A DNA stretch of 38,859 bases from a virus (IMGVR_UViG_2711768001_000013); one strand, 5' to 3'. Shown: positions 37,658-38,859, counted from the first letter of the stretch. Made by a program: numbers and translations. The notes: generated from the letters alone by a model not told the origin.

Positions 37658-37831
37658 TCATGCTGCTTTGCGACGACGAAGCTTACCCTGCTGCTCTTTA
37701 CCAGAGACAGTAGCGTGAGTGAACGCATTAGGAGCAGCCTTCATCAGAACTTCAACAGCAGCACCCATACCTGCGAATGCTTTCATTGTGTCGAACTTAA
37801 CCTGTGGCTTGGTTGCTTTTTGATCTTCCAT
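37658..37831 (-). CDS. small ORF (57 aa), not in the ORF track
   Basis: GGAG 7 nt upstream of ATG; MEDQKATKPQVKFDTMKAFAGMGAAVEVLMKAAPNAFTHATVSGKEQQGKLRRRKAA; ends at the bidirectional terminator. Confidence 0.35.
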   Translation of the reverse strand: MEDQKATKPQVKFDTMKAFAGMGAAVEVLMKAAPNAFTHATVSGKEQQGKLRRRKAA

Positions 37832-37870
37832 AGAAAACTCCAGAAGCTATACCGAAACAATTCCTGTTGT

Positions 37871-38290
37871 TTACTCATCATCAATAGATGATACGCAATA
37901 TTTATTTTTAAATTTAAGGTTCTTTGGCGTAACTTCATCAGATATATCAAAACCGTCCAGAATTCTATTGAATGTAGCTTCTGGCATATCATCATGAACG
38001 GAAATCTCACCCGATCGCTGCTTTCTAACCATGTTATCCACTCGCCAAATTATAGCTTCAGCGTAAACAACATAACTTGGATGCTTGATAAAGCGATGAT
38101 CACCAGAATTCAAGACGCAAGACGGATCGTGGGGGACACCATCCTTGATACTAGAAATATTAACAACTAAAACACAATAACAATCGTTAACGGGGTAATA
38201 AACAGGATCATTACAAATCACATGAAGATGATTGCATGGCCCAGTTGGGGCAAGCACAGTTCCTTTCCTGTATGGCTGATAATCCGTCAT
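37871..38290 (-). CDS. Cys/His-rich protein of unknown function, candidate toxin partner
   Basis: 139-aa ORF MTDYQPYRKGTVLAPTGPCNHLHVICNDPVYYPVNDCYCVLV...; start overlaps the upstream stop by 4 nt; AT-rich. Confidence 0.5.
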   Translation of the reverse strand: MTDYQPYRKGTVLAPTGPCNHLHVICNDPVYYPVNDCYCVLVVNISSIKDGVPHDPSCVLNSGDHRFIKHPSYVVYAEAIIWRVDNMVRKQRSGEISVHDDMPEATFNRILDGFDISDEVTPKNLKFKNKYCVSSIDDE

Positions 38291-38859
38291 GATAATTGCA
38301 AAGAAAATTCCTTAAGTTTCTGAGATTCTTCCATTTTGCCAATTATACGATTAGCCTCATCCTCGCTTTTACCCTCACTGATCAGCATTTCTTTCAGGTC
38401 TATAGGCTTACGAGAATTGCCAGGATTGTGCCACTCTGGACAAACGCTTTCTAAATGCGTCATGTTTGCGAGATCAAATCGGTTCATATGCCCATACAGA
38501 GAATAGATTTCATCTAAAATCCGGATATCTGCACGGCTCAACTCATCAAAGACCTCGTCTGCATCCATTTCCCTCGGATCTGAACGCAACAACACATCAT
38601 GCCCGTTCGTCTCTATCAGGTTGTACCAGTAGTCACCAATACCTTCAGCCTTACCACGAATCAAGTTCAGCGTATTCGACATGACTGGACCAAATTTCAT
38701 AGAGTAAAGGCTATCTTCGCCGATCATCCTGCCATGCTTCAAAATCGACTTGCGGTTAGACAGATAGAGCAGCTTCATCAATTTCAGATATGCCATGCGC
38801 CCACCTCGCTTAAGAAGTAGGTATGCAGCCATTTGAGCTACTTTTTCTTCGCAAAACAT
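38287..38859 (-). CDS. Panacea (DUF4065) domain antitoxin-like protein
   Basis: MFCEEKVAQMAAYLLLKRGGRMAYLKLMKLLYLSNRK...SLYSMKFGPVMSNT matches the DUF4065 pattern as I recall it; start codon sits at the last bases of the window. Confidence 0.6.
   Translation of the reverse strand: MFCEEKVAQMAAYLLLKRGGRMAYLKLMKLLYLSNRKSILKHGRMIGEDSLYSMKFGPVMSNTLNLIRGKAEGIGDYWYNLIETNGHDVLLRSDPREMDADEVFDELSRADIRILDEIYSLYGHMNRFDLANMTHLESVCPEWHNPGNSRKPIDLKEMLISEGKSEDEANRIIGKMEESQKLKEFSLQLS

Follow-up and report, generated by a model that had tools for sequence, protein, structure and literature searches.

Overlapping genes for a Panacea-domain protein and its partner

We analyzed a 38,859-nt stretch of viral DNA (IMGVR_UViG_2711768001_000013; here called the window) whose right-hand end carries two overlapping genes on the minus strand, panA (38287-38859) and panT (37871-38290), encoding proteins of 190 and 139 residues. 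They are followed on the same strand by an open reading frame (ORF) of 57 codons (37658-37831). The original prediction had picked out these three ORFs, and all are present as it described; so is the overlap between the stop codon of the first gene and the start codon of the second, which can be read directly from the sequence as ATGA at 38287-38290. The window ends with the three bases of the panA ATG. The panT ATG has no Shine-Dalgarno sequence at a distance of 5-10 nt, and the arrangement of the sequence supports translational coupling of panT to panA through the ATGA overlap. Taken with its full mechanistic account, our reading of panA-panT as a type II PanA-PanT toxin-antitoxin module of the class called T6 is likely to be right; PanT is very probably the toxin.

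The Panacea (DUF4065) signature that had been suspected in the first gene was borne out by the profile of that domain: PanA matches PF13274 (SocA_Panacea) over residues 27-137 with an E value of 1.8e-18 and a score of 67.9 bits (gathering score 25.7). Past the Panacea core there is a conserved motif, H135..CPEW..DP.GSS.PI (CPEW at 140-143, PI at 152-153), and then a variable, mildly acidic C-terminal tail of about 36 residues. For comparison we used 80 species-representative loci that span Proteobacteria, Acidobacteriota, Planctomycetota, Gemmatimonadota, Chloroflexota and others. Their PanAs are 26-46% identical to the window protein and have the motif after the domain in common with it, and the N terminus of the window PanA, MFCEEKVAQ, fits their consensus, MFxExKxAQ. 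It also fits MIFSEQKVAQ, the N terminus of Pseudomonas moraviensis PanA as corrected by Kurata et al. (2022; PNAS 119:e2102212119; PMC8832971). A structure model made from the single PanA sequence was unusable, with a predicted local distance difference test score (pLDDT) of 42.3.

The start of panT needs to be set differently from the current database entry. In the RefSeq/PGAP annotation (WP_014640052.1; window 37871-38257) the toxin is a protein of 128 residues that begins at an internal GTG. This GTG is preceded by AGGAAAGGA, yet AGGAAAGGA encodes the conserved residues R-K-G, part of an N-terminal MxxYxPYRKGT that is conserved among PanT homologues. In many of the 80 loci, moreover, the toxin match begins at the PanA stop, with the same 4-nt overlap. 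Because the N terminus is conserved and the match begins at the PanA stop, the 139-residue model is better than the 128-residue one, and the RefSeq start of the toxin gene should be corrected to give 139 rather than 128 residues.

PanT is a member of a catalogued toxin cluster

The protein encoded by the second gene had been called unassignable. Searches of Pfam, NCBIfam, PADLOC and the sequences in the PDB gave no significant match for PanT, which matches only phrog_19071, a family whose function is unknown. In a first search for homologues, 62 clusters came from Enterobacterales, Vibrio and Shewanella; when 1.84 billion representatives (clusters at 50% identity) were searched with a profile, 2,707 clusters matched with E<=1e-3 and 935 with E<=1e-10. 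Pfam gave nothing credible for 30 sampled PanT relatives, PF02452 reaching an E value of 0.11 in just 1 of the 30, and a repeat search with the family profile yielded neither informative names nor an entry from P. moraviensis. The 139-residue toxin shares its 90%-identity cluster with Panacea proteins of 190 and 232 residues; this mixture looks like a clustering artefact, which may explain why the first search did not list the exact full-length toxin as a representative in its own right.

Dataset S1 of Kurata et al. (2022) contains a PanT cluster named T6, and on sequence homology PanT belongs to it. A listed T6 toxin from Beggiatoa alba, WP_002684473.1, matches the family profile with an E value of 6.6e-26 and is 37% identical to the window PanT in a pairwise comparison (E value 3e-26). 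Several strains occur both in the T6 list and among our loci: Corticibacter populi DSM 105136, Malikia spinosa 83, Photorhabdus namnaonensis PB45.5 and strain 2016-Iso4. The T6 layout is a PanA followed by a "hypothetical protein" with an overlap of -1 or -4 nt (Kurata et al., 2022), and the window pair has the same antitoxin-then-toxin order with an overlap of a few nucleotides. Its PanA is of the same subfamily, with the N terminus MFxExKVAQ, and T6 toxins resemble the window PanT in combining the lack of a CDD or Pfam match with a MazF-like fold. One difference is that the validated T6 pair was scored "NotPhage," whereas the window pair is prophage cargo. Neither the toxin sequence, looked for by its motifs, nor the window's E. 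coli accessions were found in the supplements of Kurata et al. (2022), and a literature search brought up no later publication on this pair.

The T6 representative, P. moraviensis PanT (WP_083201923.1) with its PanA (WP_083354365.1), has been studied experimentally (Kurata et al., 2022). The toxin arrests the growth of E. coli and its PanA rescues it; the two proteins copurify as a stable complex; neutralization needs neither ClpXP nor Lon; and expression of the toxin selectively stops protein synthesis. HHpred places this toxin with the EndoA/PemK/MazF RNases, a mechanism that is predicted, not measured. By analogy with this homologue, the PanT of the window would be toxic and would inhibit translation, and its PanA would neutralize it by forming a complex with it. 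The original prediction, which proposed that the partner could be a new toxin, was thus very probably right about the toxin but not about its novelty: the T6 family was catalogued in 2022, and panAT is a new member of an already catalogued PanAT class that has been validated in a homologue, rather than a new toxin.

The same Panacea domain is found in the antitoxin of SocA-SocB, a type VI toxin-antitoxin system of Caulobacter, and we rejected the possibility that PanA acts, like SocA, as a proteolytic adaptor. PanA scores 13.5 bits against the SocA equivalog model of NCBIfam (NF047745), for which the cutoff is 190; PanT is unrelated to SocB; and, in contrast to SocA, the PanAs that have been tested, T6 included, neutralize by direct binding and independently of ClpXP.

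With this assignment, a prophage protein that had been called "unassignable" joins a validated toxin-antitoxin class and becomes open to experimental test. The T6 family is very large and crosses phyla, with about 2,700 clusters; it has no Pfam model, and its members are labelled "hypothetical" almost everywhere. Several T6 members from Pasteurellaceae carry the name "terminase" in RefSeq (Dataset S1), which is probably a propagated annotation error.

PanA and PanT are linked across divergent mobile elements

A same-strand upstream ORF could be examined in 79 of the 80 loci, and in 78 of these a PF13274 ORF lies directly upstream of the PanT homologue. A Panacea gene also immediately precedes the PanT homologue in all five divergent mobile-element contexts that we inspected: a Shewanella P4-like island; a Vibrio P2-like element; another E. 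coli element; Proteus prophages, where the pair lies downstream of a tail fibre gene, with Abi_2 or protease genes as neighbors; and a Pantoea lambdoid prophage, where it lies downstream of cI. Kurata et al. (2022) recognized Panacea toxin-antitoxin pairs by a conserved two-gene architecture with the partner within 100 nt in several species, and the 78 loci and five contexts show such an architecture for the window pair. As judged from these genomes, the linkage of PanA and PanT is near-obligate, and T6 is tied almost obligatorily to one PanA subfamily.

PanT is predicted to have a MazF-like fold with its own set of invariant residues

An AlphaFold2 model of PanT built from 53 sequences has a pLDDT of 92.6 and a predicted template modelling (pTM) score of 0.86. 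When it was compared with the PDB by Foldseek, the top 48 matches were all MazF, the best being E. coli MazF with a target-normalized template modelling score of 0.65; the best viral structural matches were PemK-like endoribonucleases. The model and these matches lead us to describe PanT as a MazF-fold toxin, with the SH3-like barrel of MazF, Kid and CcdB and two additional C-terminal helices in the predicted structure. Structure prediction thus gave a fold, as homology gave a cluster, to the protein that had resisted assignment.

The barrel is also that of CcdB, the F plasmid gyrase poison, so that PanT might be imagined to act on DNA gyrase rather than on translation. The structural score of CcdB against the PanT model is below that of MazF, however, and CcdB is absent from the top 50 Foldseek matches; furthermore, CcdB targets gyrase, whereas the T6 homologue inhibits translation and not replication. 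We consider a CcdB-type gyrase poison highly improbable and rejected it.

Among 228 members of the PanT family, the following positions are almost invariant: H21 (225 members), S/T47 (226), D55 (224), C58 (224), G63 (215), H65 (225), F67 (222), S72 (216), Y76 (226), G113 (220) and S117 (216), and all the family invariants are present in the window PanT. Most of the cysteines and histidines that had been remarked on in this protein (C19, H23, C26, C37, C39 and H54) are confined to the enterobacterial clade; in these motifs only H21, D55, C58 and H65 are invariant throughout the family. PanT stands apart from MazF, PemK and Kid (PF02452) in several ways: the invariant set H21/D55/C58/H65 is absent from MazF, the two extra C-terminal helices belong to PanT, and the antitoxin is a Panacea protein whereas that of the MazF group has the MazE/AbrB fold.

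panAT is exchangeable cargo at the end of dusA-integrating prophages

Many E. coli chromosomes match the region at 100% identity. In E. coli CDF6 the cassette ends a lambdoid prophage and, to the right of the window's end, about 250 nt past panA, there is a displaced 5' fragment of dusA, followed by the host genes zur, dinF and lexA. Two circular phages, Lys8385Vzw and mEp460, place the slot between the integrase and attP on one side and the 57-residue gene on the other. The same panAT pair is carried by the inducible phages SKA5 and Lys8385Vzw, and among 5,426 complete E. coli genomes, 205 have the whole cassette, at an identity of at least 98.3%. In mEp460 the slot is occupied by a gene for a 177-residue protein; a 177-residue hypothetical gene likewise fills it, at the same dusA site, in about 360 E. 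coli genomes that lack panAT.

Comparison with the panAT-less genomes gives the edges of the insertion. On the left, DNA homology breaks at 37841/37842, which is 10 nt upstream of the start codon of the 57-residue ORF, leaving 37842-37870 (minus strand) as the left edge of the cargo beyond panT; on the right, homology is found again some 191 nt past the end of the window and some 60 nt ahead of the dusA fragment. These breakpoints imply that the panAT cargo measures about 1.2 kb and brings its own leader, and the position of the right edge implies that the leader and promoter of panA lie outside the window. A match to TTGACC-17-TAAACT is present in that outside region, but promoter-like sites were no commoner than in shuffled sequence. 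The proposal that the pair was acquired as cargo is supported by the breakpoints, by the alternative 177-residue gene in the slot and by the prophage location, and the comparison precisely delimits a 1.2-kb slot for exchangeable cargo in dusA-integrating E. coli prophages.

The 57-residue ORF (37658-37831, minus strand), by contrast, is not part of the module to which it had been assigned. It matches phrog_2741 over its full length and is a backbone gene of dusA-integrating lambdoid phages; as had been noted, it is preceded by a Shine-Dalgarno sequence, GGAG, 8 nt upstream of its ATG. A three-component system, with this protein as regulator, chaperone or second effector, has some appeal in that the ORF lies on the same strand as panT, 39 nt away, with no terminator between them, so that it is probably read through from panAT here. 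The gene is nevertheless found without panAT in mEp460 and in about 360 further E. coli genomes, which have this gene only; homology to these prophages breaks just ahead of it; and it is absent beside the pair in all five of the Shewanella, Vibrio, Proteus, Pantoea and other E. coli contexts. We therefore rejected a three-gene system, whose probability we put as very close to nil, in favor of a two-gene module next to a backbone gene that occurs independently of it. The 57-residue protein has a basic C terminus, KLRRRKAA, and is 96.5-100% identical across the five phage records that carry it.

A model for the PanA-PanT module

In the explanation that we favor, panA and panT would be cotranscribed from a promoter immediately beyond the window, in the leader of about 190 nt that is specific to the cargo, and their translation would be coupled through the ATGA overlap. 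Free PanT, with its MazF fold, would block translation, most probably by cleaving RNA, with H21, S/T46-47, D55, C58 and H65 as candidate active-site residues; PanA would bind PanT directly and hold it inactive. The pair would thus form a 1.2-kb cargo in a variable slot, between the attachment site and the 57-residue gene, of a dusA-integrating lambdoid prophage, with abortive-infection-type defense or prophage stabilization as its likely role. For the window pair itself, we infer the RNase chemistry, the catalytic residues and the defense role from fold, conservation and genomic context.

Several observations weigh against this account. The first concern the RNase chemistry. PF02452 (PemK_toxin) does not match the window PanT, and hhalign comparison of the PanT profile gave probabilities of only 0.5 with E. 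coli MazF and 0.4 with a 25-sequence MazF alignment, the latter being shallow (effective sequence number, Neff, 2.4) and made up of close relatives only. Because these alignments reveal no sequence-profile link to MazF, we have not filed PanT as a member of the Pfam PemK_toxin family. No arginine is conserved among the 228 PanT sequences, so the catalytic Arg29 of MazF has no conserved equivalent. In the low-confidence hhalign alignment to E. coli MazF, H21-L22 of PanT stands opposite H28-R29, and S46-S47 opposite T52-T53; by this pairing the catalytic arginine would be replaced by other residues in PanT. The invariant histidine, aspartate, cysteine and histidine are unlike canonical MazF, implying that the chemistry may differ.

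These features raise the alternative that PanT uses a MazF scaffold to poison translation by a reaction other than the metal-independent mRNA cleavage of MazF, with H21, D55, C58 and H65 forming a metal (zinc) site or a Cys-His-Asp triad, for example for metal-dependent cleavage of tRNA or rRNA or for covalent modification of a translation factor. Histidine, aspartate, cysteine and histidine are classical metal-site and triad residues, and each of the four is kept in at least 224 of the 228 members. The missing arginine, the nonsignificant profile comparison and the fact that the mechanism of the validated homologue is itself a prediction all point the same way. On the other side, the conserved Ser/Thr pair at 46-47 aligns with T52-T53 of MazF, as it would in a MazF-like site, and two histidines plus an acid suit a metal-independent RNase equally well. 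The four residues could serve as acid and base in an RNase that needs no metal, bind a metal or form a Cys-His-Asp triad; we regard a different chemistry as unlikely, and RNA cleavage remains the step that we favor. The contrast between the invariant His/Asp/Cys/His and the Arg/Thr of MazF is the most interesting point about PanT. Until now the chemistry of the toxin has been guessed from its fold, and the four conserved residues are clear targets for mutagenesis.

A second group of observations concerns activity and expression in E. coli. The evidence on what the pair does comes from the P. moraviensis homologue and not from the E. coli copy. In addition, Kurata et al. (2022) found no toxicity in E. 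coli for 8 of the 25 PanTs that they tested, among them that of cluster T1, an E. coli/phage cluster. A scan for promoter consensus sequences found sites no more common than in shuffled sequence. The E. coli copy might be inactive, either because it is not toxic in its own host or because it is a decaying, passive remnant. Against this, both ORFs are intact and the ATGA coupling is preserved; every family invariant is present; the sequence is conserved at the identity given above across the 205 E. coli genomes; and the inducible phages SKA5 and Lys8385Vzw carry the same pair. An inactive copy thus seems quite improbable to us, and we continue to regard the module as probably functional.

The third point concerns the biological role. 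PADLOC-DB v2.0.0 contained no family matching PanA, PanT, the 57-residue ORF or a neighboring 277-residue ORF at E<=0.1; a defense function is suggested by genomic context, which makes it plausible. The PanA-PanT pair is always found in mobile elements, at places typical of morons or hotspots: adjacent to att sites, behind cI, and behind tail fibre genes with Abi-type genes alongside. This placement fits abortive-infection defense or stabilization of the element. A bolder version would have the T6 PanTs as a distinct enzyme class on the MazF scaffold, with H21/D55/C58/H65 in place of Arg/Thr, and the E. coli pair as an abortive-infection defense of the prophage, housed in the exchangeable slot; we hold this combination to be doubtful. 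The slot itself offers a convenient setting in which to ask whether PanAT modules defend against phages.

Neighboring features of the window

An intrinsic terminator with an 11-bp stem, GAAAACCCGCC/GGCGGGTTTTT, lies at 37614-37639 on the minus strand, where it terminates the unit on that strand and is directed toward the end of prtN, a prtN-family gene on the plus strand (37329-37610). The cassette is therefore convergent with prtN and opposes the neighboring phage genes, as the original prediction had stated. The same prediction took the terminator to be bidirectional: the terminator scan confirmed its presence but called it on the minus strand only, and an A-tract on its other side makes use in both directions plausible from the sequence. 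An Rfam scan of 36300-38859 gave just sub-threshold matches, centred on the terminator, and nothing that points to an RNA antitoxin.

The GC content is 38.6% for panT, 43.1% for panA and 48.3% for the 57-residue ORF, against 51% for the whole window, so the description of the cassette as AT-rich is only moderately true. The strongly AT-rich gene is the neighboring 277-residue ORF (29% GC), which lies outside the finding reported here. Low GC also occurs at 23-27 kb, within an ordinary lambdoid late-regulation and lysis region on the minus strand (22559-28261) that encodes Rz, lysozyme, a P21-type holin, an N6/N4 DNA methylase, antiterminator Q and a DUF968/HNH protein. Toward the other end of the window, a 352-residue ORF on the plus strand (1346-2404) has a weak, sub-threshold match (E value 0.0036) to the S1/CSD-like domain of TOTE conflict systems, and a Lom/Ail gene lies on the minus strand at 2966-3565. 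The window apparently stops short of the integrase end of the prophage.
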